Origin: an uncultured Planctomycetota bacterium
Lineage (GTDB): Bacteria; Planctomycetota; Planctomycetia; Isosphaerales; Isosphaeraceae
Length of the DNA: 64,000 nucleotides
Direction: 5' to 3'
Assembly (NCBI GenBank): GCA_963823665.1
Contig: CAWGMQ010000006.1
Coordinates: 1,696,001 to 1,760,000, forward strand
Shown: in pieces, positions 1,880 to 15,930 of the stretch
Layout of the letters: every line of letters begins with the position of its first letter
Position numbering within the stretch: the stretch's first letter is position 1
Translations under genes and position numbers: made by a program
The notes under the pieces: model-generated
The model's input: the letters and a program-made list of their open reading frames with translations, nothing else
The model's database searches: none
Told to the model about the DNA's origin: nothing

Positions 1880-2332
1880 ATGATTCGTCGAGAACTGTTC
1901 GGAGCCTTGAGCGTTACAGCCGCCGGGTTGATGGGAGCGATCGGCCGGGTCGCCCAGGCCGGTGACCAGGACCACCACCAGGACGAAGTTCACGAAGGAT
2001 GCCTCAAGAACTGCCAGGCCTGCAAGCGGGAGTGCGACGAGGCGTTCCACTTCTGCGCTTTCGAATTGGCGGAAGGCAAGAAGGAGTATGCCAGGGCCCT
2101 CCACCTGGTCGCCGATTGCGCCGCGTTCTGCGACCTTTCCGCGACGCTCATCGCCCGCCAGAGCCCGCTCATGGTTCACGCTTGCGCGGCCTGCGCAAAG
2201 GCTTGTCAGGACTGTGGGGCCGAATGCGACAAATTCACGGACGCGGCGCTGAAGGAATGCGCCAAAGCCTGCCACGACTGCGAGGCGTCTTGCCGATCAA
2301 TGATCAAGTCGTCGGGCGACCATCATTCTTGA
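1880..2332 (+). CDS. Four-helix-bundle copper-binding/storage protein (Csp/DUF326-like) with Tat signal
   Basis: MIRRELFG twin-arginine leader, His-rich linker, 16 Cys in CxxC/CxxxC spacing, AGGAGG RBS. Confidence 0.85.
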   Translation: MIRRELFGALSVTAAGLMGAIGRVAQAGDQDHHQDEVHEGCLKNCQACKRECDEAFHFCAFELAEGKKEYARALHLVADCAAFCDLSATLIARQSPLMVHACAACAKACQDCGAECDKFTDAALKECAKACHDCEASCRSMIKSSGDHHS

Positions 2333-2355: not shown

Positions 2356-3668
2356 TCAAACCGACGCTTCAATCGCCGGCCGCACTTTGCACCACGCGGC
2401 CTCGATATCGTCCCGATCCAGTTGGCCCAAGATCCTCGTCGCGGCCGCCTCCCTAACCGCGTCCGCCTGAGCCGTGAGCGCCTGCGCGCGGCATCCGTGG
2501 GCATCCGCGGTGTGATTCGCCGGATGGCATCAAGGATCCGGATCAGCACAGCCGGGTTATCCGCGGCGGCTTGGCGTATCTGATCGAACGCCGTCTTGAC
2601 CACTCGCTCGAGCCGAAGCGGAGGCACTCGCACCCGCAGCTTGCCGCGGCCGTCGTACCAGCATCCGTCGCTCAGGGACACATCCGCAACGCAGAGCAGC
2701 GCGTCCGCCACCCAATCGACGCACCCCACACCCGTGAACGTATCGTTGACCGCCGGCGAAAGCGCGCGGATCGCGATCTCGACGATCTGCGCAATGCCGA
2801 ATTCGCAGTCCTGCGCGAGAACGCGGTGTCTTCCGATGCGCACATGTCGCCCGACCAAGCCGTCGAGGTCGGCAAGTCGGTGGGGCGGCCAGACACACGC
2901 GAGTGGCTCGCCACTCAGCACAAACTGCCCCGGTCTATACAGGACGTGAATGACGGTCTCCGTCCGAAGGGCCGCGGCCACCAGGGCCGCGCGGTCGATC
3001 TCCTGAACGTAACCGCTGTGCTTGCACGTGACGGTCTGCCCTTGGCCGATCTGCTGCGCGACGACCTCCGAACGAACGCGCTCGCCGCTTCCCTGGTGAG
3101 GCCCGCGCGCGTGCGCCTGGATCACGGTGGGCCGCATGTCGTCGACGATGCGCGCGATCATGTCCGGATTCTGGAGGGAAGCGGCGATGCGATGGCTGTA
3201 ATAGATCAGGAACCCAAAACTTGCGATCACCAGGAACCAGCTCGTGATGAGAGAAACCTCGGGAATAAAGGTCGAGTGCGAGTCCTGATGGGTCACCAGA
3301 AACACCAGACACAGATAGATGAAAGTGGCCATGAACAGGCCGATGGTGGCCTGCGTGACCCAATCCTGGAGGAATCGATAGAGGAGGCGCGGACCGAATA
3401 GCGTGGCGACCATCGAAAGCACGAGGAGCGCGACGGAGAAGATCAGCGCCAGGACCGTGCTCACGCAACTGAGCATTGCGCTCAGGATGGCGCGCGCGTC
3501 GTCAATGCCACCCATGGTGAACCATTCGGGAAGATGAATGGCACCACGAGCATCCAGGACATCCGGAATCATGGTGAGCCCGAACAAGACGAGGCTCGCC
3601 AGCGAGAATTTCAAAGGGATCCGCCAGAGATTCACGTCTGAGGAGCGACCGACGGGAGCAGAGCGCAC
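2356..3668 (-). CDS. DUF2254 family membrane protein (frameshift near 2485)
   Basis: ARAILS...FGPRLL..F...SGYVQEID...IAIRALSPAVNDTFT motifs. GTG at 3668 has AAGGAG 8 nt upstream. A 1-base shift near 2485 restores a ...LDRDDIEAAW... C-terminus ending at 2356. Confidence 0.8.
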
Positions 3669-3682
3669 CAGGGCGTCTCCTT

Positions 3683-3868
3683 CTATTTGTGGCCGCCGCT
3701 GCGGTGCCGGCACGTGATGAAGCCGTGGTTGTTCCGCCCGCCAGTCTTTTTCAGCGGGGCAGTCAGTCTCTTCTCGGGCTTCTTGTTCTTGTCGGTCAAC
3801 TCGGAAAAATCGCTCACGGACGCGAACCGTCGCCCGGCGCTCGTCGGTTTGTAAAATCGGATGCCCAT
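3683..3868 (-). CDS. rplB: Stand-alone 61-aa N-terminal fragment of 50S ribosomal protein uL2 (mini-ORF or pseudogene)
   Basis: [25 protein letters not shown]...PEK...[20 protein letters not shown] matches the uL2 N-terminus and ends in TAG right after GGHK. No other S10-operon genes nearby. Confidence 0.8.
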
Positions 3869-3982
3869 CGCGCCGTCTCACTTTCTCGTCTGCCCGGGAC
3901 TCAGCATGACGGACCGGTCCCGGTCGTGATCCAATTCGAACTTGCACGGAGAATCGCGGAGTCCGTATGAACGAATTGCTCG

Positions 3983-4066
3983 CTACCAGCCGCCACCGCT
4001 GGTGAGGAACAGTCGGAGAAAGAGGTCGTGCTCAGAATGAGAGTTGTTGATTTTGAATCTGAGCAT
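3983..4066 (-). CDS. 27-aa micro-peptide A, MLRFKINNSHSEHDLFLRLFLTSGGGW (putative leader peptide)
   Basis: GAGG RBS 5 nt before ATG, own promoter, paralog of equal length at 4295-4378. Confidence 0.7.
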   Translation of the reverse strand: MLRFKINNSHSEHDLFLRLFLTSGGGW

Positions 4067-4110
4067 GGATACCTCGACGGATGAGGTTCTGACCCTCGAC
4101 CATCCCACGA

Positions 4111-4140
4111 ATTCTATGAATCGCCCTGGCAAGCCGTCAA
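4111..4140 (-). promoter_or_regulatory. sigma70-type promoter TTGACG-N18-TAGAAT for micro-peptide A unit
   Basis: Near-consensus -35/-10, preceded by GGCGATTTTCG identical to the plus-strand copy. Confidence 0.7.
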
Positions 4141-4222
4141 CGAAAATCGCCCTTCGAAGAAATGGCCAGCAGCCTCGAGCCGCGGCTGCCGCCAAATGCG
4201 CGCCGGCCGCCGGCGATTTTCG

Positions 4223-4252
4223 TTGACATCGCGCGAAGCCGATCGATAAGAT
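4223..4252 (+). promoter_or_regulatory. sigma70-type promoter TTGACA-N18-TAAGAT for micro-peptide B unit
   Basis: Perfect -35 and near-consensus -10, mirror image of the minus-strand promoter. Confidence 0.7.
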
Positions 4253-4294
4253 TCTGCGGAGTCAGTGTTAATCAGACTCGCATCTGAGGATTCG

Positions 4295-4378
4295 ATGCTC
4301 CGACAAACATTCAGCCACATCCGCTCTGAGCACGACCTCTTCATCCGCCTCTTCCTCACCGGCGGCGGCGGCTGGTAA
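4295..4378 (+). CDS. 27-aa micro-peptide B, MLRQTFSHIRSEHDLFIRLFLTGGGGW (putative leader peptide)
   Basis: GAGG RBS 5 nt before ATG, ends TGG TAA, paralog of 3983-4066. Not in the supplied ORF track. Confidence 0.7.
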   Translation: MLRQTFSHIRSEHDLFIRLFLTGGGGW

Positions 4379-4653
4379 GTATCGGGCTCCGCGCCCTTTC
4401 GCGTCTTCGCCCCACTCCCTTGCCGGCGCGCGCGACTCGATGCGCCGCAAACACCCGGTCTGCGCGCGCACCGTCGTGACCAATCGCCTCATCAGGCACT
4501 TCGCAAGCATGCAAAACGCGTCGGGGCGATCGTGCGAGTTGCAGCGATTTTCGGGCAAATCGCACGGGTTTGTCCCCGGTGAGCCCGCCTTGACTTTCGA
4601 GTAAATCCGTAAAGTATCCCCGCGCAATCACATCCGAGTTATCACAATACGTT

Positions 4654-4669
4654 TGGCACAACGAATGCA
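4654..4669 (+). promoter_or_regulatory. sigma54 (-24/-12) promoter TGGCACAACGAATGCA
   Basis: GG-N10-GC spacing with TGGCAC, about 45 nt upstream of the ATG at 4715. Confidence 0.6.
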
Positions 4670-4714
4670 TGATTCGACCTCGGGTGCGAAGGATTCCCAG
4701 AAAGGATATCAACC

Positions 4715-5179
4715 ATGCTCAGACGATTTTCTCTTGTTGTTGTGACCGCCGCATGCTTGCCCGCCGCAAGCGGGTGCGGCAATTCCGCCGGCCTTGTTCC
4801 GGTCTCGGGAAAGGTGTCGTACAAGGGCGATCCGGCCGCGGGTGCGGTCGTTTACTTCCAGCGCGCCGATAGCCATCCCTCCTCGCACGAGCTTGTGCCG
4901 TTCGGGGTCGTGCAGAAAGACGGGGGCTTTTCGCTCTCTTCTGAGGGGCTCGGATCGGGCGCGCCGCCCGGAAGCTACAACGTCTTGATCGAGTGGAGAG
5001 ATGGAACAGAAAACGGTGTGGTCCCCGTCAAGGGCAAACCAAACCTCGTAAAACGCACTCGCATCCACGCCGGCCCGGACAGGCTGGGTGGGCGATATTT
5101 CAACGTCAGCAAGCCGCTGCTCACGGCCGAGGTCAAACCCGGGTCGAACCCACTTCTGGCGTTCGAGCTCAAGGACTGA
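4715..5179 (+). CDS. Lipoprotein with carboxypeptidase-regulatory-like domain (DUF1559-associated)
   Basis: Lipobox ASGC, VSGKVSYKGDPAAGAVVYF, GAPPGSYNV. Confidence 0.75.
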   Translation: MLRRFSLVVVTAACLPAASGCGNSAGLVPVSGKVSYKGDPAAGAVVYFQRADSHPSSHELVPFGVVQKDGGFSLSSEGLGSGAPPGSYNVLIEWRDGTENGVVPVKGKPNLVKRTRIHAGPDRLGGRYFNVSKPLLTAEVKPGSNPLLAFELKD

Positions 5180-5268
5180 CCGGAGCAACAACTGAATACT
5201 GTGGCGCCGTGTGGGCGCCAAAGCTCAAGCGAAGCGAAGAATTGCATCTTTGAATTGGAGAAACGCCA

Positions 5269-6417
5269 ATGAATGGACTGCGTCGTTCGATTAAACCCCG
5301 TGGGTTCACTTTGATCGAGCTCCTGGTCGTGATCTCGATCATCGCCGTGCTGATCGCTCTCTTGCTGCCGGCTGTACAAGCGGCGCGTGAGTCTGCGCGG
5401 CGATCGCAGTGCATCAACAACTTGAAGCAGATCGGGTTGGCCACGCTCAACTTCGAAACCACTTACGGCGCGTTGCCTTCGGACAGCCCCAGACTTGCGG
5501 TCCCTGACCCGAACGCCGATGCCCAGGCCGCGATTCCCACAATCACATGCTCGTACCTGACCCAGATTCTGCCTTTCATGGATCAGTCGGTGATCTACAA
5601 TCAGATCAACCTGCTTCAGGCCGCCTCCGATACCGCCAACATCCCGCCGTGCACGGGCCCCGGGGCTCTGCACTCGGGCAATAACTCGGCGTACTCGCAG
5701 GCGATCAGCGTGTTCCTGTGTCCGTCGTCGCCAGGGCCGGCGACGATCAATTACTACAACGCGTTCTGGGGCCCGTATGGCGACGGCGGCGGCGACACCT
5801 GCACGCCTGGATCGCCGGCTCCAATCGGCGGAGTGACAAACCTCAATCCGCCCCCCACGCAGATCTGGGGGAGAACTGACTACTTCCCGATCCCGGGGCT
5901 CCACAACACGGCCCTTCTGGCCGCGGGAATGAGTGCCACTTACATCGCCGCGGTGGGCGAAGGCAAAGACTCGGGCACGCTGACCAATCCCCTGATCACC
6001 GGCAAGATCCGCATGGCTTCGATCACCGACGGCAGCTCGAACACCATGATGGTTTCCGAATGCGGCTCGAAGCCGATCGGTTACAACGGATTCCGCCAGA
6101 TTTATCTGTCGGAAGTCAACGGCCTGCCCGTCGACGGCGTGATCGAGCCCGTCTCGAGCGCTGGCGGCGCCTGGGCCGACAATTTCACCTACTCGAGCCT
6201 GGCCGGTGCGCAGGGGCGCTTGACCGGAGTTCGAGGCGGCACGTGCATGGTGAACTGCACCAGCAACAACGAGATCTACGCGTTCCATCCCGGCGGTGCG
6301 AACGGCTTGTTTGTCGATGGGTCTGTCCATTTTCTCAAGGACACCTCGTCGGTTCCCTTCATCGCCGCGCTCGTGACCCGCGCCGGCGGCGAGATGATCA
6401 GCAGCGACCAGTATTGA
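5269..6417 (+). CDS. DUF1559 prepilin-type N-terminal cleavage/methylation protein
   Basis: [56 protein letters not shown] (H-X9-DG). Confidence 0.95.
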
Positions 6418-6522
6418 TCTGATCCGGTCGCAGCGAATCCGTGACGCTTGAGCGCCTTTGCGGCGAGCGCCGACGCGAGTCGGCCCGCCGCAAGGGCGTG
6501 CTTCCCCTATCGCTAACGACAG

Positions 6523-8592
6523 ATGAGACAAAACTCCAGCACCTCCGCGCTCTTCATCGTGTTCTGCACGATCGTCGTCGGCCCCGGTTGCAGCCGGCAA
6601 GACATCGAGCCCTCGCCGCCGGTTCAGCCGGTGAGCGCCGAACGAGTTGAGCTCGATTTTCTGCTCGCAAACGAATCCGTTCGCGCCAAGACCCACAAGA
6701 CGCAATCACGCCCCGCGCCCGATTTCGCCCGGGACGTTGCGCCGCTTTTGGAGAAATACTGCGTGAGCTGCCACGATGCGGCCGGAGCTGAGGGTGGCGT
6801 CATCCTCGAAAACATCTCAACCCGACCGCACGAAAAGCTCACGCCGCTCTTGAAACGCGTGGTAGAGAATCTGCGATCCGAAAGCATGCCGCCCGAGGGA
6901 GAGCCGCGTCCCGACGCGATGGAGCTCGAGATCATCTGCTCCTGGATCGACGGCGCGACCACGAAGCTCGATCACGGTCCCGGCCATCACGCGCCGCGGC
7001 GTCTCAATCGGGCTCAATACAACAACACGATCCGCGACCTGATCGGCCTCGACCTGCGACCGGCCGACGAGTTTCCCTCGGACGACGTCGGATACGGATT
7101 TGACAACATCGGCGACGTGCTATCGACCTCCCCGATCCTGATCGAGATGTATCTCGCCGCCGCCGAAAAGGTGATCGATGTGGCGTTTCAGTCGCCCGAG
7201 CCGCGAGCGAGGATCCTGAATCCCTCCGCCGATTTCATGCCGCTCGCCTTCCGGCGATACACCCCGCCCGTGCGAGCGCCGCGCGATTACAAGGTGCTCC
7301 GGACCGCTCCGGTAACTGCCGATCCCGAGATCCAGCGCCAGCAGCACATCTACAACATCCTGCGGGCGTTCGCCGATCGAGCTTATCGGCGGCCGGCCAC
7401 GCACGACGAGCTCACCCGTCTGCTCGGCATCGTGATCTCGGCCGAAAAGGACGGCGAGACGCAGGATCGCGCCCTCCGGCTCGCACTCGAGGCGGTGCTG
7501 TCCTCACCTCATTTTCTCTTCATCGGCGCGGGTGTGGCGCAGGATGCCGCCCCCGCTGAGCGCGCTTCGCCGCAACACGACTTTGATCTCGCCGTTCGTC
7601 TTTCCTATTTCCTGTGGAGCAGCATGCCCGACGACGAGCTTCTTCGCCTGGCGAGCCAGGGAGCCCTGCGCCGCCCAGGTGCGCTGGAAGCTCAGGTGAA
7701 GCGGATGCTCGGCGATCGCCGGTCTCGAGCCTTGGCCGAGCAGTTTGCCGGCCAGTGGCTGCAAATTCGAAAGCTCGCGACGTTCGAGCCGGACCGAAAG
7801 CTCTTCCCCGAGTTCGACTCGTCACTGAAGGACGCAATGCTCGAGGAAGCGACGCTCTTCTTCGAGTCGATCGTACAAGAAGATAGGACCGTGCTCGATT
7901 TTCTGGAGGCGGATTACACCTTCGTGAGCGGCCGTCTGGCTCGGCACTACGGGATCGCCGGCGTCGAGGGCGAGGCATTTCGCCGCGTCTCGCTCAAAGG
8001 TACGGCTCGCGGCGGCGTGATCACGATGGCGAGCGTACTTGCGGCGACCTCGAGCGCCACGCGGACCTCACCGGTCAAACGCGGCCGTTGGATTCTCGAC
8101 AACATTCTGGGAGCACCTCCCTCGCCGCCGCCGGCCGGCGTGGAAGCGCTCAAGGAAACCCGTGGCCCCGCGGGGACGCTCCGACAGCAACTGGAGCAGC
8201 ACCGGAGCAATCCCGACTGCGCCTCCTGTCATCGGCGGATGGATCCCCTGGGGTTCGCGCTCGAGAACTTTGATTCGCTCGGAAGTTGGCGGGAAAAAGA
8301 GTCGGGCCAGAGCATCGATGCGGAGGGCCGTTTGCCCGGGGGCCGGGCGTTCCGCGGGCCGTCGGGTCTCCGAACGGCCCTGTCGCTTCGCCGTGATGCA
8401 TTCGCCCGCTGCCTGGCCGAGAAGATGCTCACATTCGCGCTGGGCCGCGGAGTCGAGGCGGCGGAAAGCCCCGCGGTGGAGCAGATCGTGCATCGCCTGA
8501 AGCGCAATAACTATCGGTTTTCCGCGCTGGTCCTGGGCATCGTCGAAAGCGAGCCATTCTCGAACGGGTCAAGCCAGGCCGAGGGGCCATGA
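6523..8592 (+). CDS. DUF1592-family protein (planctomycete cytochrome c plus DUF1587/1595/1592/1588/1585 domains)
   Basis: CVSCH and CASCH heme motifs, RRLNRAQYNNTIRDL, LSYFLWSSMPD, TSPVKRGRWIL, DPLGFALENFD. Confidence 0.92.
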   Translation: MRQNSSTSALFIVFCTIVVGPGCSRQDIEPSPPVQPVSAERVELDFLLANESVRAKTHKTQSRPAPDFARDVAPLLEKYCVSCHDAAGAEGGVILENISTRPHEKLTPLLKRVVENLRSESMPPEGEPRPDAMELEIICSWIDGATTKLDHGPGHHAPRRLNRAQYNNTIRDLIGLDLRPADEFPSDDVGYGFDNIGDVLSTSPILIEMYLAAAEKVIDVAFQSPEPRARILNPSADFMPLAFRRYTPPVRAPRDYKVLRTAPVTADPEIQRQQHIYNILRAFADRAYRRPATHDELTRLLGIVISAEKDGETQDRALRLALEAVLSSPHFLFIGAGVAQDAAPAERASPQHDFDLAVRLSYFLWSSMPDDELLRLASQGALRRPGALEAQVKRMLGDRRSRALAEQFAGQWLQIRKLATFEPDRKLFPEFDSSLKDAMLEEATLFFESIVQEDRTVLDFLEADYTFVSGRLARHYGIAGVEGEAFRRVSLKGTARGGVITMASVLAATSSATRTSPVKRGRWILDNILGAPPSPPPAGVEALKETRGPAGTLRQQLEQHRSNPDCASCHRRMDPLGFALENFDSLGSWREKESGQSIDAEGRLPGGRAFRGPSGLRTALSLRRDAFARCLAEKMLTFALGRGVEAAESPAVEQIVHRLKRNNYRFSALVLGIVESEPFSNGSSQAEGP

Positions 8593-8593
8593 T

Positions 8594-9940
8594 ATGAATA
8601 AACACCGTAGAATCTCACGACGAACCATCCTGCGGGGCATCGGCGCGTCGCTGGCCTTGCCGCTCCTCGAAGTGATGGAAGACCGTAGCGCCCGCGCGAG
8701 CTCCGCTCACGGCGGCAAGCCGCCCGTGCGGATGGCATTCCTGTACGTTCCCAATGGAGTGCACATGCCGGCGTGGACGCCGCGCGCGGAAGGCAAGGAC
8801 TTCGATCTGCCGCCGATCCTGGAACCGCTCTCCGCCGTCAAGAATGAAATCCTTGTCCTGAGTGGGCTCACCTTGAATCCGGCTCGCGCGCTCGGTGACG
8901 GCGGCGGCGACCACGCTCGGGCCATGGCCAGCTTCTTGACGGGCTGTCACCCACGGAAGACCGGCGGCGCCGATCTGTGCGCGGGGGTCTCGGTCGATCA
9001 GGTCGCTGCGCAGCGACTGGGCCACCTGACCCGGTTTCCGTCGCTCGAGATCGGCTGTGAGGGAGGGCAGAACGGCGGCGAGTGCGACCACGGCTATAGC
9101 TGTGCGTACCAGTCGAACCTGGCGTGGCGCAGCGAACGGGCGCCGCTTGCAAAGCAGGTCAATCCCCGGTTGTTGTTCGACCGGCTCTTTGGTGCTCCGG
9201 CCGAAAACGAGAGCGCGCAAGCCCGTGCCCGGACCGCTCGGCGGCAGAAGAGCGTTCTCGACTTCGTCCTGGAAGAGACCCGGCGCCTCACGCAGGATCT
9301 CGGCGTTGCAGACCGCCGCAAGCTGGATGAGTACCTGACCAGCGTTCGCGAGGTCGAGCGGCGGATCTCGATTGCCTCGCCCGTGTTCGACCATGGTGGA
9401 TCGGCTCATCAGCGGCCGCTCGGAATTCCTGCCGACATCGAAGAACACTTACGCGTGATGAGTGATCTCCTGGTACTGGCGTTTCAGGCCGATCTCACGC
9501 GAATCGCGACGTTCGTCTTCGCCAACGACGGCAGCAACCGGAGCTACCCCGCGATCGACGTTCGCGACGGCCATCACGACCTGTCGCACCACGGCGGCGA
9601 CGCCGCCAAGGAAACGAAAATCCTTGCGATCAACCGGTTCCATGTCGCCCAGCTCGCGTATCTCTTCGGCAAGCTGAAGTCGACTCGGGAGGGAGATGGT
9701 TCACTGCTCGATCACTCGATGATCGTCTACGGCAGCGGCATCAGTGACGGCAACTCGCACCGCCACGACAACTTGCCGATTCTGCTCTCGGGCCGTGCCG
9801 CAGGCACGATCAAGACGGGCCGGCACATTCGCTGCGCGGCGGAGACGCCACTCTGCAATCTCTATGTATCGATGCTCAATCGCATCGGAGTCGATGCAAC
9901 GGCGTTCGGCGACAGCACCGGCGATCTGGGTGCTCTGTAG
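8594..9940 (+). CDS. DUF1552 family protein (Tat signal)
   Basis: ISRRTILRGIGASLALPLLE, YVPNG, GYSCAY, HHDLSHH, GSGISDGNSH. Usual partner of DUF1592. Confidence 0.92.
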   Translation: MNKHRRISRRTILRGIGASLALPLLEVMEDRSARASSAHGGKPPVRMAFLYVPNGVHMPAWTPRAEGKDFDLPPILEPLSAVKNEILVLSGLTLNPARALGDGGGDHARAMASFLTGCHPRKTGGADLCAGVSVDQVAAQRLGHLTRFPSLEIGCEGGQNGGECDHGYSCAYQSNLAWRSERAPLAKQVNPRLLFDRLFGAPAENESAQARARTARRQKSVLDFVLEETRRLTQDLGVADRRKLDEYLTSVREVERRISIASPVFDHGGSAHQRPLGIPADIEEHLRVMSDLLVLAFQADLTRIATFVFANDGSNRSYPAIDVRDGHHDLSHHGGDAAKETKILAINRFHVAQLAYLFGKLKSTREGDGSLLDHSMIVYGSGISDGNSHRHDNLPILLSGRAAGTIKTGRHIRCAAETPLCNLYVSMLNRIGVDATAFGDSTGDLGAL

Positions 9941-9995
9941 GGATAAATTCCGGCGCCGTGAATGGACTGGCACGATCGGGCAACCGAATCGGGTC

Positions 9996-10160
9996 GCACA
10001 GGCCTCGCCAGTGCTCTGGTGTAGCAGGCACACTCCGTGTGCCGCCCGCTGAAAGTTTTCGATGGATGGCACAGGCCTCGCCAGTGCTCTGGTGTAGCAG
10101 GCACACTCCGTGTGCCGCCCGCTGAAAGTTCTCGATGGATGGGACTGGCCTCGCCAGTGC
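9996..10160. repeat. 73-bp tandem repeat (2 full + 1 partial) of REP-like palindromes
   Basis: Units start at 9996, 10069 and 10142. They contain GCAC(A/T)GGC-ctc-GCCAGTGC and GTAGCA-GGCACAC-tcc-GTGTGCC hairpins and lie between convergent genes. Confidence 0.85.
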
Positions 10161-10170
10161 TGCATGCCGC

Positions 10171-11302
10171 TCACACATCCGCGATCAGAATATCCAGCCC
10201 TTCAGCCTGGCGCTCGAGCCGGTTCAAGATCGAGCCATTCAACTGCTTGTACCACGGCTGACGGCTCTTGCCGACCACGATGATCTTGATCGCGTATTCG
10301 TGGGCAAACGCCAGCATGGTGCTCGCGACGTCCGGCCCGCGGAACGTCATGGGGATTCCGCCGAGCTGCTGCGCCAGCTCGAGATTCTTGCGAGAGCAGC
10401 CGCTGCGTGGCCGCGTCGATGCGCGTCAGGTCTTCAAGCGGCGTCTGAATGTACACGGCATACCACGGCACATTCAGCCGGTCGGCGATCCGCGCAGTCT
10501 TTCGCAAGAGCGCGGGCGCATTCGGGCTGCGGCTCGAAATGCCAACCATGACGCGGTCCGTCGCCGAGAGCGGAAACTGGTCGGCCTCGGCCCGCCGCGT
10601 CCGGCGGTCGATCAAGTGGGCAATCTCCGTCAGCGTGATCTCGCGTAGCCGCGTCAGATTCGAAGGCGTGAAGAAATTCTCGAGCGCCGCATTGATCCGG
10701 TCGGGTGGATAAACCTTGCCGGTGTTGAGCCGTTCGATCAAGTCTTCGACGGAGATGTCCACGTTGACGATCTGGTCGGCCTCGGCAAGCACGCGGTCCG
10801 GAATGCGCTCCTTCACCCGCACGTTGGTCACGCGCTCGATCTCGTCGTACAGACTTTCGAGATGCTGAACGTTCACAGTTGTGATCACATGAATGCCCGC
10901 ATGAAGCAGGTCTTCGACGTCCTGAAATCGCTTGGGATGGCGCGAGCCGGGTGCGTTGGTGTGGGCCAGCTCGTCGACCAGGCACACCGTCGGCCGCCGG
11001 ACGATGATCGCGTCGACATCCATTTCGCGGAGGGTCACGCCGCGATACTCGACCACGCGTGGAGGAATGATCTCGAGGTCACCGATCTGTTCCGCCGTCT
11101 CGCGGCGCCCGTGCGTCTCGACCAGGCCGATCACCGCGTCGACGCCCTGCGACTTGAGACGATGGCCTTCCCGGAGCATCGCATAGGTCTTGCCCGTGCC
11201 GGCCGCCGAGCCCAGGTAAACCTTGAGCCGTCCCCGCGTCTGCCGGCGGATCAAGCTCAGGAACTGCTCGGGAGTCGGTCGATGAGTCTCCGTGGAGGGC
11301 AT
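10171..11302 (-). CDS. kdpD: Truncated KdpD: N-terminal sensor + Usp domain, no kinase (frameshift near 10390)
   Basis: GRLKVYLGSAAGTGKTYAML, VDELAHTNAPGSRHPKR, TTVNVQHLESL. The shifted frame ends ...GLDILIADV at 10171. Confidence 0.88.
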
Positions 11303-11359
11303 GGAATTGGACCTCGGCTCCTTCGTCAATCATGAAAGAATATGGATCGGAAAACGCCC

Positions 11360-11911
11360 CTACTTGTCCAGCTCCAGGTTGAGCAGCAGCACGTTCACTC
11401 GAGCGGGGGCGCCGATGATCGTGCCCGATCGGTTCGTCATCTTCTCGATCAGCGTTCGCACAACCTCGATCGAGAGCCCGCGCGCCTTCGCAACGCGAGG
11501 CGCCTGGAAAAAAGCCGTCTCCAGACTGATGTCCGGATCGAGACCCGAGCCCGACGCCGTGACCAGGTCCAAGGGCGCCGGCTGACTGACGGTTGCCTCG
11601 AGAGCCTGAACCCTGGCCACGACCGCCGTGCGCAGATCCGCGTTGTTGGTGCCAAGGTTCGACCCTCCGGCCGCGTCTGCCTTGTAGTCGACCGCAGACG
11701 GCCGCGGCCGGAAGTACCGCGCCGAGACGAACCGCTGCGCGATCAGCTCTGACCCGATCACCGTTCGCCCGTCCGGCGCGTAAATCAGGCTTCCATCCGC
11801 CTGCGAGGGAAACAATAGCTGCGCCACCCCCCAGACCGCCGCCGGGTAGACGATCGCACAGAGAAGAAAGGTAAGGATGCAGGCTTTGAGTGCTTTCATG
11901 TAAATTGTCAT
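11360..11911 (-). CDS. kdpC: K+-transporting ATPase subunit C
   Basis: GSELIAQ, PRPSA, GGSNL, VTASGSGLDPDIS, VNVLLLNLELD. Confidence 0.95.
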   Translation of the reverse strand: MTIYMKALKACILTFLLCAIVYPAAVWGVAQLLFPSQADGSLIYAPDGRTVIGSELIAQRFVSARYFRPRPSAVDYKADAAGGSNLGTNNADLRTAVVARVQALEATVSQPAPLDLVTASGSGLDPDISLETAFFQAPRVAKARGLSIEVVRTLIEKMTNRSGTIIGAPARVNVLLLNLELDK

Positions 11912-11935
11912 CTGTTAGTTGTCAGGTGTTAGTTG

Positions 11936-14070
11936 TCATTTGATGACCATTGTCAGGATCGGGTCGATCATCAGGTCGATCAGCTTGATTCCGATGAAGG
12001 GCGCGATGACTCCGCCCAGGCCGTAGAAGAGCATGTTCCGGCGCAAGAGGCGCTGGCGCCGACCGGGCGGTACGTCACTCCCTTGAGCGCGATCGGGATG
12101 AGTAGCGGGATGATGATCGCGTTGAATATCACGGCAGAGAGGATCGCCGACTGCGGGCCGCCCTCGGTCGCGAGGCCCATCAAGTCGATTGCCCGCAGGA
12201 ACGCGAGCGATTCGAAGCCGACGAACATCGCCGGAATCACGGCGAAGTACTTGGCGAGGTCGTTGGCGATGGAAAAGGTCGTGAGCGCTCCGCGGGTCAT
12301 GAGCAGTTGCTTGCCGATCTCGACGACTTCGATGAGCTTGGTCGGGTCGCTGTCCAGGTCGACCATGTTGCCGGCTTCCTTGGCAGCCTGAGTGCCCGAG
12401 TTCATGGCCACGCCGATATCGGCCTGAGCCAGCGCAGGGGCGTCGTTGGTGCCGTCGCCCATCATGGCGACGAGCTTGCCGCCGGTCTGCTCCTTGCGGA
12501 TATAGGCAAGCTTCGCCTCGGGCGTGGCCTGGGCGATGAAGTCGTCGACGCCCGCCTCGTCGGCGATCGCCTTGGCGGTCAGCGGGTTATCGCCCGTCAC
12601 CATCACCACGCGCAGCCCCATCTGCCTGAGCCGGGCGAACCGTTCGCGAATGCCCTGCTTCAAGATGTCTTCCAGCTTGATCAGCCCGACGATCTTCTCG
12701 TCGCTCACCACGGCGAGCGGCGTTGCGCCCTTCGAGGCGATGGCGTCGACCGTCTCCTGGTAGCCGTCGGGAATGGTTCCGCGCATCTCCTCCACGGCCC
12801 GCGCGATCGTGTTCGGCGCCCCCTTGCGGATCCGGCATCCGCCGGGAATATCGATGCCGCTCATCCGGGTCTGGGCCGTGAACTCGACGAACCGGCTGCC
12901 GTCGGGAGCTTCCAGCTCCAGGGTGAACTCACGTCGCGCCAGCTCGACAATGCTCTTGCCTTCCGGCGTGGTGTCGGCCAGCGAGGCCATCGCGGCCAGC
13001 CGCGCCAGCTCCCGCTCGTTCGTGCCCTGTAGCGGCACGAACGCAGTCGCGCGGCGATTGCCAAGCGTGATCGTGCCGGTCTTGTCGAGCAGCAGCGTGT
13101 CCACATCGCCGGCAACCTCGACGGCCTTGCCGCTCTTGGCGATCAGGTTTGCCGCCAGCGCTCGATCCATCCCCGCGATCCCGATCGCCGCGAGCAAAGC
13201 ACCAATGGTCGTGGGGATCAAACACACCAGAAGTGCGATGAGCGTGGGGATGTCCAGGCTGATCGCAAAGTACCGGGCCATGGGATACAGCGTGGCGGTG
13301 ACGATCAGGAAGATGATCGAGAATGCAGCAAGGATGATCGTCAGCGCGATTTCATTCGGCGTCTTCTGCCGCGACGCCCCTTCAACCAGGGCGATCATCC
13401 GGTCCAGGAAGCTTTCGCCGGCCCCGGCGGTCACCTCCACAACAATGCGATCGGAGAGCACCCGCGTTCCGCCCGTCACGCCCGACCGGTCGCCGCCGGC
13501 CTCGCGAATCACCGGCGCGCTCTCGCCGGTAATCGCCGACTCATCGACCGAGGCCACGCCGATGACGATGTCGCCGTCAGCCGGAATGATCTGACCGGCC
13601 TCGACCACGACGCGGTCGCCCGGCTTCAGCTCCGTCGACGAAACCTCGATCGTCTCGCCCGAGCTATCCAGCCGAAACGCCAGCGTGTCCTGACGAGTCG
13701 CCCGCAGGCTCTGTGCCTGCGCTTTACCCCGAGCCTCGGCGAGTGCCTCCGCGAAATTGGCGAAGAGCACCGTGAGCAGCAGCAAGAACGCCAGCGCCGC
13801 CTGATAAAGGATCAGCCCCGTGCCGGCCCCCGACACGATCGACTCGATTGTCACAAGCGTGGTCAAGATCCACCCGGCCTCGACCAGGAACATCACCGGG
13901 TTTCTTGCCATGTTCCGAGGGTCGAGCATCACGAACGATCGGATCGTCGCCATCTTCACCAGTGCCGGCTCGAACAGCCGCAGCCGGCGGGTATGACGGC
14001 GATTCAGCTTGAGTGCCTGAGAATCGATCGGAGGCGGCGCGGGAAGCTGAGTCGGAGTGAGAAGCGACAT
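11936..14070 (-). CDS. kdpB: K+-transporting P-type ATPase subunit B (frameshift near 12050)
   Basis: [25 protein letters not shown]. The shifted frame gives [17 protein letters not shown] ending at 11936. Confidence 0.95.
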
Positions 14071-14130
14071 TGGCAGTGAGTTTCCTGGCGGACAAGATCG
14101 AGATCGAATTCCGATGATAACGTCGATCGC

Positions 14131-14179
14131 GCCGCAGTGCGGCACACGGAGCATTCCGACGCAGAGCGTCGGAACGAGG
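14131..14179 (-). repeat. 49-nt two-hairpin REP-like element (copy 1)
   Basis: Reverse complement CCTCGTTCCGACGCTCTGCGTCGGAATG...GCCGCACTGCGGC, same family as 25475-25523. Confidence 0.7.
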
Positions 14180-14187
14180 AAAAAACA

Positions 14188-15930
14188 TCACGGCGGTGCG
14201 GACGTTGCCGAAAGATGGTCGGCGATCGGGCCCAGGACCACCGCGGGCATGAACGAGAGCGCACCAACCAGGAGCACGGTTCCCAGCAGCATTGCGGCAA
14301 AGGTGAGGTCGTTCGTCATCAGTGTTCCCGTCGTCGTCGGAGTGCGTTTCTTCTCGGCCAGGAAACCCGCGATGGCCAGGGGCAGCACCAGCGCGGGAAA
14401 TCTGCCCAGCAGCAGGACGACGCCCGTGGCGATGTTCCAGGCGGGGTTGTTGTCGGATAGACCTTCAAATCCCGACCCGTTGTTCGCCGCGGCCGAGGTG
14501 AACTCGTAGAGCACCTCGCTGAATCCATGCGGGCCGGGGTTGGCCACCGTCTTCTGGCCCCAGTCGGTCGCCGCGAAGAGCGCCGTGCCGCAGGTGATCA
14601 GGATCGGGTGGATCAACACGACGATCATCGCCAGCTTCACCTCCCGGGCCTCGATCTTCTTGCCCAGGTACTCCGGAGTTCGCCCGACCATGAGCCCGGC
14701 CAGAAACACGGCAACGATCACATACATGAGCATGTTCAGGAAACCCGCTCCGATGCCGCTGAAGTCGACGTTGAGCATCATGAGCGACATCGGCACCAGC
14801 CCCCCCAGGGGCTGGAAGCTGTCGTGCATCGCGTTCACCGAGCCGTTCGACGTGGCGGTCGTGATGGCTGACCACGTGGCCGATGGCACTGGCCCGATCC
14901 GCACCTCCTTTCCCTCGAGATTACCAACTCCGCGCACGGGCAGGCCGGCCGTGGCTGCGCTCGGCTGCAGCTCGGCCCCGATTGCGATCGCCGCCCCGGC
15001 CAGCAAGAGCGCCAGCATCACACCAAAAATGACGATCGCTTGCGCCTTGTCCTTGATCAAGATACCGAACATCACGATTGCGGCCATCGGGATGATGATG
15101 ATCGAGACCACCTCGAACAGGTTGCTCCAGGGGCTCGGGTTCTCGAACGGATGAGTCGAGTTCGGCCCGAAGAAGCCGCCGCCGTTGGTGCCAAGCTGCT
15201 TGATCGCCACTGCGGACGCGACCGGCCCCACGGCGATCGATTGCGTGCCCCGCTCGACCGTGCTCGCTTTGACCGCACCTCCGAAGGTCATCGGCACACC
15301 GGTCGCAACCAGGGCGATCGCCAGGATCGCTGAAAGGGGCAAGAGCACGAGCGTGATCCCCCGGATCGTGTCCAGGTAGAAATCCCCGAGAACCCGCTCG
15401 CCGCGCAGGCCACGAATCACCGCCAGCATCACGGCCAACCCACAGGCCGGCGTGACGATTTGCAGCCACACGATCGCGCCAAGCTGGCTGAAATACGAGA
15501 GATGCTGCTCGCCCGAGTAATGCTGGAGGTTGGTGTTGGTGACAAACGAGCAGACTGTGTTGAAGATGACGGCGGTGTCGGCCCCGGCGTGTTCGACCCC
15601 CGCCGCGTCCTTGTACCCAAGCGCGGTGAGCGCGCCCTTGTGGTCCGGGTTGAGCAGCGGAAGATAGCTCTGCAAGAGCAGGATGCCGAACGAGATCGCG
15701 AAGAGCGCCATGTTGAAAGCCAGCAGCGCGAGCGCGTACTGCTTCCAGCCCATCTTGATCGGCTCGCGATGACCGATCAGTCGCAAGAGCGCGAGCGGAA
15801 TCGCGTCGACCCCCTTGCCGACACGCGCCGGCTCGGGATCGAGAGCCCTCGCCATCCACCAGCCCAAGGGCAGCGAGCCTGCAATCGGTAGCCCGATCGC
15901 CCAGAAGGGATGCACAAGCCCGAAATCCAA
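14188..15930 (-). CDS. kdpA: K+-transporting ATPase subunit A
   Basis: SFVTNTNLQHYSGE, KQLGTNGGGFF, SNGSVN, GRTPEYLGKKI, SAAANNGSGF. Confidence 0.95.
   Translation of the reverse strand: MDFGLVHPFWAIGLPIAGSLPLGWWMARALDPEPARVGKGVDAIPLALLRLIGHREPIKMGWKQYALALLAFNMALFAISFGILLLQSYLPLLNPDHKGALTALGYKDAAGVEHAGADTAVIFNTVCSFVTNTNLQHYSGEQHLSYFSQLGAIVWLQIVTPACGLAVMLAVIRGLRGERVLGDFYLDTIRGITLVLLPLSAILAIALVATGVPMTFGGAVKASTVERGTQSIAVGPVASAVAIKQLGTNGGGFFGPNSTHPFENPSPWSNLFEVVSIIIIPMAAIVMFGILIKDKAQAIVIFGVMLALLLAGAAIAIGAELQPSAATAGLPVRGVGNLEGKEVRIGPVPSATWSAITTATSNGSVNAMHDSFQPLGGLVPMSLMMLNVDFSGIGAGFLNMLMYVIVAVFLAGLMVGRTPEYLGKKIEAREVKLAMIVVLIHPILITCGTALFAATDWGQKTVANPGPHGFSEVLYEFTSAAANNGSGFEGLSDNNPAWNIATGVVLLLGRFPALVLPLAIAGFLAEKKRTPTTTGTLMTNDLTFAAMLLGTVLLVGALSFMPAVVLGPIADHLSATSAPP

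Follow-up and report, generated by a model that had tools for sequence, protein, structure and literature searches.

The window, a stretch of 64,000 nucleotides from a planctomycete of the family Isosphaeraceae, raises the question of why a stand-alone open reading frame (ORF) encodes only the first 61 residues of ribosomal protein uL2 (mini-uL2). The original prediction preferred a retained mini-protein under leader-peptide control and offered a relic of a duplicated rplB as the simpler alternative. Its description of a clean ORF for the N-terminal arm of uL2, terminating in GGHK-TAG and followed by AAGGAG (3682-3677) and the GTG of DUF2254 at 3668, is borne out by the sequence and by the match to TIGR01171. 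This match covers positions 1-58 of 275 and, at 54.9 bits, does not reach the cut-off of 174.5, while a full-length copy of the parent type (L010) scores 389.9 bits; in solved uL2 structures, mini-uL2 matches residues 1-59/61. Calling it the N-terminal arm only is right for the N-terminal extension but slightly too narrow, as the ORF also includes just the first 18 of the 77 positions of PF00181. Residues 1-61 are plainly common to uL2 (rplB; TIGR01171, PF00181 and PF03947), but mini-uL2 has only 22% of its length and lacks the C-terminal part as well as the OB and SH3-like parts. AlphaFold2 (49 sequences) predicted no fold for the 61 residues (pLDDT 63, pTM 0.21, one 4-residue helix), which is weak evidence and is expected of an arm that threads into rRNA.

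The source genome (G000; 16.5 Mb, 12 contigs) carries its own rplB inside the S10 operon on a different contig, and the uL2 piece does lie far from any ribosomal operon, as had been claimed. A search of G000 for the C-terminal domain of uL2 (PF03947) returned a single match, at the S10 gene, with none at the mini-uL2 locus and thus no second C-terminal half of the protein. The proposed order of promoter, leader peptide A, uL2 piece and DUF2254 is as described, and the promoter and leader are real and conserved; what had been missed is a divergent, paralogous unit of promoter and peptide B on the opposite strand (Table 1).

Table 1. Features in and around the mini-uL2 locus (positions in the window).
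Feature	Positions	Strand	Basis or remark
Csp1-like four-helix copper storage protein	1880..2332	+	TIGR04401, E 1.7e-9, below its cut-off
DUF2254 membrane protein	2356..3668	-	PF10011, E 5.6e-93
AAGGAG, ribosome-binding site (RBS) of DUF2254	3677..3682	-	GGAG-type site kept at L104, L108 and L110
Mini-uL2, 5' 61 codons of a stand-alone rplB; very probably a deletion scar	3683..3868	-	uL2 homology, clade placement
Putative deletion junction 2: rplB codon 61 // DUF2254 upstream DNA, apparent source of TAG	3683..3690	-	
Original 5' region and RBS of stand-alone rplB	3869..3927	-	Aligned with L086
Putative deletion junction 1: leader // rplB 5' region; membrane-protein and receiver-TPR genes removed	3927..3948	-	
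Tract after the stop of peptide A	3943..3982	-	C-rich across the family; candidate Rho loading site
Leader peptide A, 27 aa, C-terminus LFLTSGGGW	3983..4066	-	
Promoter A: conserved GATTTTCRTTGAC box entering the -35 hexamer, then -10 TAGAAT	4111..4149	-	
Promoter B, paralogue of promoter A	4214..4252	+	
Leader peptide B, 27 aa, C-terminus LFLTGGGGW; heads the lipoprotein-DUF1559 cluster	4295..4378	+	
C-rich tract after peptide B	4379..4438	+	28 C, 16 G
Genes behind peptide B: 154-aa exported protein (lipoprotein-like by our own label) and DUF1559	4715..6417	+	

The origin of the piece was sought among 121 genomes of the family, five of which had no rplB match; in one (G017) the gene starts at a contig edge, and in another (G061) the two matches overlap and belong to a single gene. 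Full-length rplB genes outside ribosomal operons were found as a second copy in G001, G014 and G064 and as the sole copy in G072, while a short stand-alone piece occurs in G000 only. Mini-uL2 shares 84% protein and 78% nucleotide identity with the S10 rplB of its own genome and 87% nucleotide identity with the stand-alone copies of these four genomes. Together they form one clade apart from the host S10 gene (SH-aLRT 92.5, bootstrap 94) in a nucleotide tree that includes frameshifted rows and has a long outgroup branch; unlike the rplB of the S10 operon, the parent gene of mini-uL2 lay outside that operon. An exact look-up placed mini-uL2 in a 63-member protein cluster with two of the stand-alone copies. 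Forty of the 63 members were read, and 12 of the 15 members listed are 285 aa long; the cluster proteins lack genomic context and may include products of S10 genes, since the S10 rplB of genera g17 and g53 have the same signature residues.

The stand-alone rplB is under purifying selection, with a dN/dS of 0.116 over 285 codons between the G014 and G064 copies. In G072, the S10 operon (L147, G072:C13) lacks rplB, with rplW directly joining rpsS, and the single rplB (L152:8639-9496) stands alone behind its own promoter-like site, between what we read as a sugar-isomerase-like gene and an FHA-like gene. Provided that this assembly is correct, a cell can draw all its uL2 from the stand-alone clade. 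A specialised uL2 paralogue with residues of its own was considered and rejected; its signature columns recur in the S10 rplB of g17 and g53, and the extra gene therefore appears to encode ordinary uL2. Alternative ribosomal-protein paralogues are known from the Zn C+/C- type, which the extra rplB resembles in being a second copy that is encoded away from the main operon and separately controlled, but from which it differs in having no residues of its own. No viral carriage of the extra rplB was confirmed. A core and usually single-copy ribosomal gene has thus been duplicated, kept, repeatedly eroded and, in one genome, has replaced the S10 copy, which calls for caution when rplB is used as a single-copy marker in Isosphaeraceae.

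The history of the locus can be read from its relatives. In G001, which belongs to the same genus and has the same flanks (the convergent Csp1-like gene is common to both and anchors the synteny), a full-length rplB with two compensating frameshifts, perhaps read errors, stands directly behind the same promoter, and both peptides and DUF2254 are missing; by this comparison, G001 and the window appear to carry complementary deletions. Other related loci retain other parts. At L039 and L118, a promoter and peptide precede a 111-aa membrane protein, a receiver-TPR gene and an intact 285-aa rplB, and the genes downstream of rplB are not TPR and DUF2254. DUF2254 lies within 3.5 kb at 4 of 41 peptide loci: behind membrane, receiver-TPR, uL2 residues 85-107 and TPR at L103; behind uL2 residues 242-285 and TPR at L104; behind the 3' half of the membrane gene, with no uL2, at L108; and alone, also with no uL2, at L110. 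The uL2 scraps of L103 and L104 are nearest to the stand-alone rplB copies, and that of L104 has a dN/dS of 0.21-0.25, compared to 0.07 for the same stretch of intact copies. Overlaying these partial loci gives an inferred parent operon of seven parts, complete at no single locus, in which the ancestor would have carried the promoter, the leader peptide, the 111-aa membrane protein, receiver-TPR, an extra full-length rplB, TPR and DUF2254. Because a full-length rplB occupies the same spot in G001 and related operons hold non-overlapping scraps, mini-uL2 is very probably the scar of a deletion, most likely recent, in a spare full-length rplB. The simpler alternative named at the outset accordingly fits the data.

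Sequence comparison of these loci shows two deletions behind the present arrangement. One removed the membrane and receiver genes, and a second took out rplB from codon 62 onwards, ending shortly ahead of the DUF2254 RBS. The unit is a mosaic in which the leader and about 35 nt join a point about 60 nt before rplB, and codon 61 joins the DUF2254 RBS region. On the rplB side of the first junction, positions 1353-1594 of L086 align with the 5' region of the gene together with the mini ORF at 81%, and the 5' regions of the stand-alone rplB in G014, G064 and G072 are similar to it by eye. At the second junction, contigs with the DUF2254 of relatives (X1 record 6, X3 record 21) align as far as 3687, where the alignment ends, and the TAG bases align with DUF2254 upstream DNA; the stop of mini-uL2 is whatever that DNA supplied. 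The junction is tidy because DUF2254 and its RBS were kept, as in the other deletions, and leader control over DUF2254 would be what has been retained.

Such a join could also have arisen as a chimera during assembly of a long-read bin, and the assembly does contain indels, even in the S10 rplB, while junction 2 is bridged by no record among the matches listed (contigs of four sequencing runs with partial cover). This explanation is exceedingly improbable, however, as the order of an rplB piece followed by DUF2254 recurs at L103 and L104, the flanks are collinear with G001, and indel errors cannot account for a loss of about 1.2 kb. Furthermore, run X1, possibly the source sample itself, has a contig of 152 nt that is identical to positions 3851-4002 and matches junction 1 exactly. 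Frameshifts in G000 affect the S10 genes (L002) and the tail of DUF2254, where a single frameshift near 2484, an assembly slip or real, alters the end of a protein whose homologues have 440 aa; the assembly seems indel-prone, and pseudogene calls in it need reads.

Whether the remaining 61 codons still serve a purpose was addressed by their conservation and rate of change. Aligned with full-length copies, as the original prediction had suggested, mini-uL2 gives a dN/dS of 0.04-0.09. Its private changes (8 synonymous and 2 non-synonymous, undated relative to the deletion) resemble those of the intact copies (7/2, 4/2, 5/1 and 11/2), and neutral evolution can, roughly estimated, account for no more than about one fifth of its branch. 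Neutral decay, which had been named beforehand as evidence against a retained protein, is thus not apparent, the fragment having no excess of amino-acid changes. The low non-synonymous count indicates either a recent truncation or continuing constraint on the piece. In a rival reading, mini-uL2 is kept as a working protein, a basic arm that would bind 23S rRNA or 50S particles under assembly and modulate them when the leader activates the operon; the low dN/dS and the intact start, RBS and frame speak for it. An 82-aa protein that is 97% identical to mini-uL2 (P0017) likewise ceases to be clearly homologous to uL2 at residue 62 (65 by BLAST), within about one codon of the same place; its tail had no convincing match in related loci. 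Against a working protein, the 61-aa form occurs in 1 of 121 genomes and on one contig among about 15 billion proteins, other lineages retain other uL2 pieces or none, the stop is borrowed from DUF2254 upstream DNA, and the piece carries G57S in a near-invariant motif, at a position where Gly occupies 53 of the 54 genome rows. The lack of a predicted fold of its own also points, weakly, in this direction.

Related fragments show no preference for this length. The proposed search for uL2 fragments of about 60 aa in relatives produced no second 61-aa form, although extra rplB paralogs behind peptides of the same family were found (L039, L118). Among proteins of 33-107 aa, 86 hits were obtained; the residue at which their uL2 homology stops varies between 27 and 109 and does not cluster at 61. 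Judged by signature residues, several are scraps from the same clade, and one (P0085) is, by eye, fused to a membrane-gene-like piece. Shortened uL2 with the N-terminus kept has been described in E. coli as truncated L2 (tL2), once proposed as an inhibitor of DnaA (PMC3105425, PMC12039935, both in part) and attributed to cell lysis under ampicillin (PMC12039935, in part). As characterised in these excerpts, tL2 is a product of proteolysis from which just the final 59 residues are missing, whereas mini-uL2 is a gene-encoded 61-mer. With the full-length rplB in G001 and the non-overlapping scraps elsewhere, this distribution runs counter to the retained mini-protein initially preferred, and an action of the 61-aa piece itself on ribosomes is highly unlikely. 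A recent deletion is the simplest account of the low decay, the rarity, G57S and P0017 taken together.

A scrap may still be useful as a stretch of translation. It is probably translated, would have no uL2 function, and may pass ribosomes on to DUF2254, which starts 15 nt past the stop. If so, the scrap would be kept as a translation coupler in which the amino acids are irrelevant, an explanation compatible with a deletion scar rather than exclusive of it. Its stop stands directly ahead of the RBS, the membrane-gene remnant at L108 likewise stops just before the RBS, and reinitiation at short distances, with a peak at 10-11 bp, has been proposed (PMC4833913, in part). However, L110 has no ORF remnant detectable by the queries used, the gap at L104 is about 50 nt, and DUF2254 has its own RBS; retention for coupling therefore seems unlikely.

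The mini-uL2 ORF, as a deletion scar, is by itself ordinary, and the leader family and the stand-alone rplB matter more. The pattern L-F-x-x-x-G-G-G-W-stop occurs 45 times in 33 of the 121 genomes (two evidently by chance), compared to 6 times for the reversed pattern, and in G000 it hits exactly peptides A and B. After removal of duplicates and of matches without the upstream motif, 53 distinct peptides remained, nearly all from Isosphaeraceae and 49 of them 26-27 aa long. Their consensus is [ST]-E-[HN]-[DE]-L-[FY]-[IL]-[RK]-L-F-[LI]-T-[GSN]-G-G-G-W-stop, in which residues fixed by the search patterns are no evidence of conservation; Glu(-16), left free in the pattern, is present in 30 of 31 rows. 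Stop codons vary (TGA 24, TAG 17, TAA 12), synonymous variation is present, and the short upstream ORF is conserved as a peptide near its C-terminus, as in TnaC-type leaders. Promoter A is sigma-70-like (TTGACG-18-TAGAAT at 4140-4111), with two such sites observed and 0.2 expected within 3500-4800. The GATTTTCRTTGAC box at -35 occurs in strict form with 23 of 29 peptides of the window subtype and with none of the 24 others, has only two copies in G000, and is possibly a regulator site.

Outside the family, a related pattern was absent from 300 other genomes of the phylum, though the loci of a genome-wide scan include a few Pirellulales and Planctomicrobium records; one lone locus (L106), in a record titled Alphaproteobacteria, has the same membrane and receiver genes and reflects mis-binning or transfer. 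A pattern scan of metagenomes found three short loci, none reaching uL2. Peptides A and B and a third peptide had no Pfam or NCBIfam match. Titles and the beginnings of abstracts contained no account of the GGGW leader or of a stand-alone rplB, none of the papers searched contains the peptide endings, and the portion of the main text of PMC4833913 covered does not mention the peptide; supplements of upstream-ORF censuses (PMC4833913, PMC10987492, PMC12992588) could list it.

The genes behind the leader suggest what it controls. With 14 queries drawn from loci of this analysis, 41 loci were classified by downstream genes as CPA2 antiporter (11), CBS-NhaA (2), Na/Ca exchanger and/or DUF6653 without CPA2 (3), exported protein-DUF1559 (10), the membrane-protein/DUF2254 operon type (12) or unrecognised (3). 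A cation transporter thus follows at about 15 of 41 loci, the window subtype being mostly without one, and a CBS-MgtE gene lies behind one further peptide (L058). Cultured Singulisphaera carry the leader ahead of a CPA2 antiporter (L075, L091, L114). Overall, the GGGW leader probably switches on ion-transport genes in soil planctomycetes. The 111-aa membrane protein that is often the first gene behind the leader (L056:1648-1980) has no Pfam or NCBIfam match, and in the ESM Atlas it falls solely into unnamed planctomycete clusters.

As to how it might act, the GGGW leader is a probable candidate for a TnaC-like, Rho-coupled attenuator. A ribosome stalling at or near the Trp-stop would cover the C-rich tract, block Rho termination and turn on the downstream genes; by analogy, this mechanism is modestly favoured. 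In the tnaCAB operon of E. coli, the arrested ribosome masks a Rho site (PMC8450073, in part). The GGGW leader has in common with TnaC, as excerpted there, a short upstream ORF with a candidate Rho site immediately behind it, structural genes that in most loci begin over 100 nt further downstream, and conserved residues packed against the stop. It differs from that account in its sequence, in having no terminal Pro, in using all three stops compared to UGA in TnaC, and in its targets, which are ion transporters and exported proteins. A gene for Rho is present in G000. C and pyrimidines are enriched in the 40 nt that follow the stop (C/G 1.87 and 1.63, compared to 324/346 after 19 other genes of the window), and C exceeds G family-wide, yet the tract after peptide A itself is only weakly C-biased (17 C and 14 G in 60 nt). 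Pairing between the C-rich tract and the GGG codons is just as possible.

Arrest peptides of the RAPP type also have a C-terminal motif in an upstream ORF (PMC10987492, in part); compared with those in this excerpt, the GGGW peptide has no RAPP/RGPP motif, and by eye its N-terminus is too short and polar for a membrane or signal segment. A switch of initiation of the SecM/RAPP type, in which stalling unmasks the RBS, was tried and rejected. With a ribosome modelled at the stop at 41 of 53 loci, some with mis-picked start codons, access to the downstream RBS rose at 3 and fell at 5, with a mean of 0.35 either way. This unchanged access, the gap of about 80-460 nt to the next gene and the little variation in some codons would also suit a trans-acting small peptide, or a conserved element that is RNA. 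Either is rather improbable, as the ORF shares its strand with the next genes and, wherever this was checked, always has a promoter-like site immediately ahead of it, 49 of 53 peptides are 26-27 aa with a free N-terminus, a fixed C-terminus and three stops, and Rfam searches at 11 loci (E up to 1) matched nothing besides a tRNA region. The same result speaks against a known cation riboswitch at these loci.

Returning to the stalling leader, its signal is tentatively ionic or pH stress, judging from the content of the regulon. MgtL is a leader ORF that controls a cation-transport operon by attenuation, and to our knowledge leaders that read ion status via the ribosome are rare. Salmonella mgtCBR leader ORFs act by attenuation ahead of cation-transport genes (PMC3641672, in part), as the GGGW leader stands ahead of CBS-MgtE at L058; compared with the leader in that excerpt, the GGGW leader has no run of Pro codons, another sequence and another phylum. 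A more specific and doubtful proposal is that the GGGW peptide is a ribosome-based cation/pH sensor, in which an ion shift at the peptidyl transferase centre would block termination and thereby induce transporters for Na+/H+, K+/H+, Ca2+ and Mg2+ together with, in one operon, a working spare uL2. The uL2-rRNA interface has eight ions, the most of any protein (PMC11724316, in part), and uL2 binds K+ (PMC6555806, in part). The spare rplB may be tied to ion stress or may merely be a hitch-hiker in the operon. The leader is short and fixed in length, and could be tested in a cell-free system within days.

Several observations concern the surroundings of the locus. Behind peptide B (window 4295-9940), the exported protein and DUF1559 are followed by two more planctomycete-type genes, an arrangement found at 10 of 41 loci. 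Imperfect repeats with near-identical ORF translations lie between a DUF1552-like gene and kdpD (window 9862-10180). Just upstream of the window (L160:8730-10315), an IS66 transposase stands beside msrA, msrB, dsbD and an ECF sigma factor. Further on, kdp potassium-uptake genes, labelled from sequence, occupy positions 10202-15930; kdp genes also lie near GGGW loci in several genomes, including L039 and L125, and L039 additionally carries CBS-MgtE, ammonium- and APC-type transporter genes.
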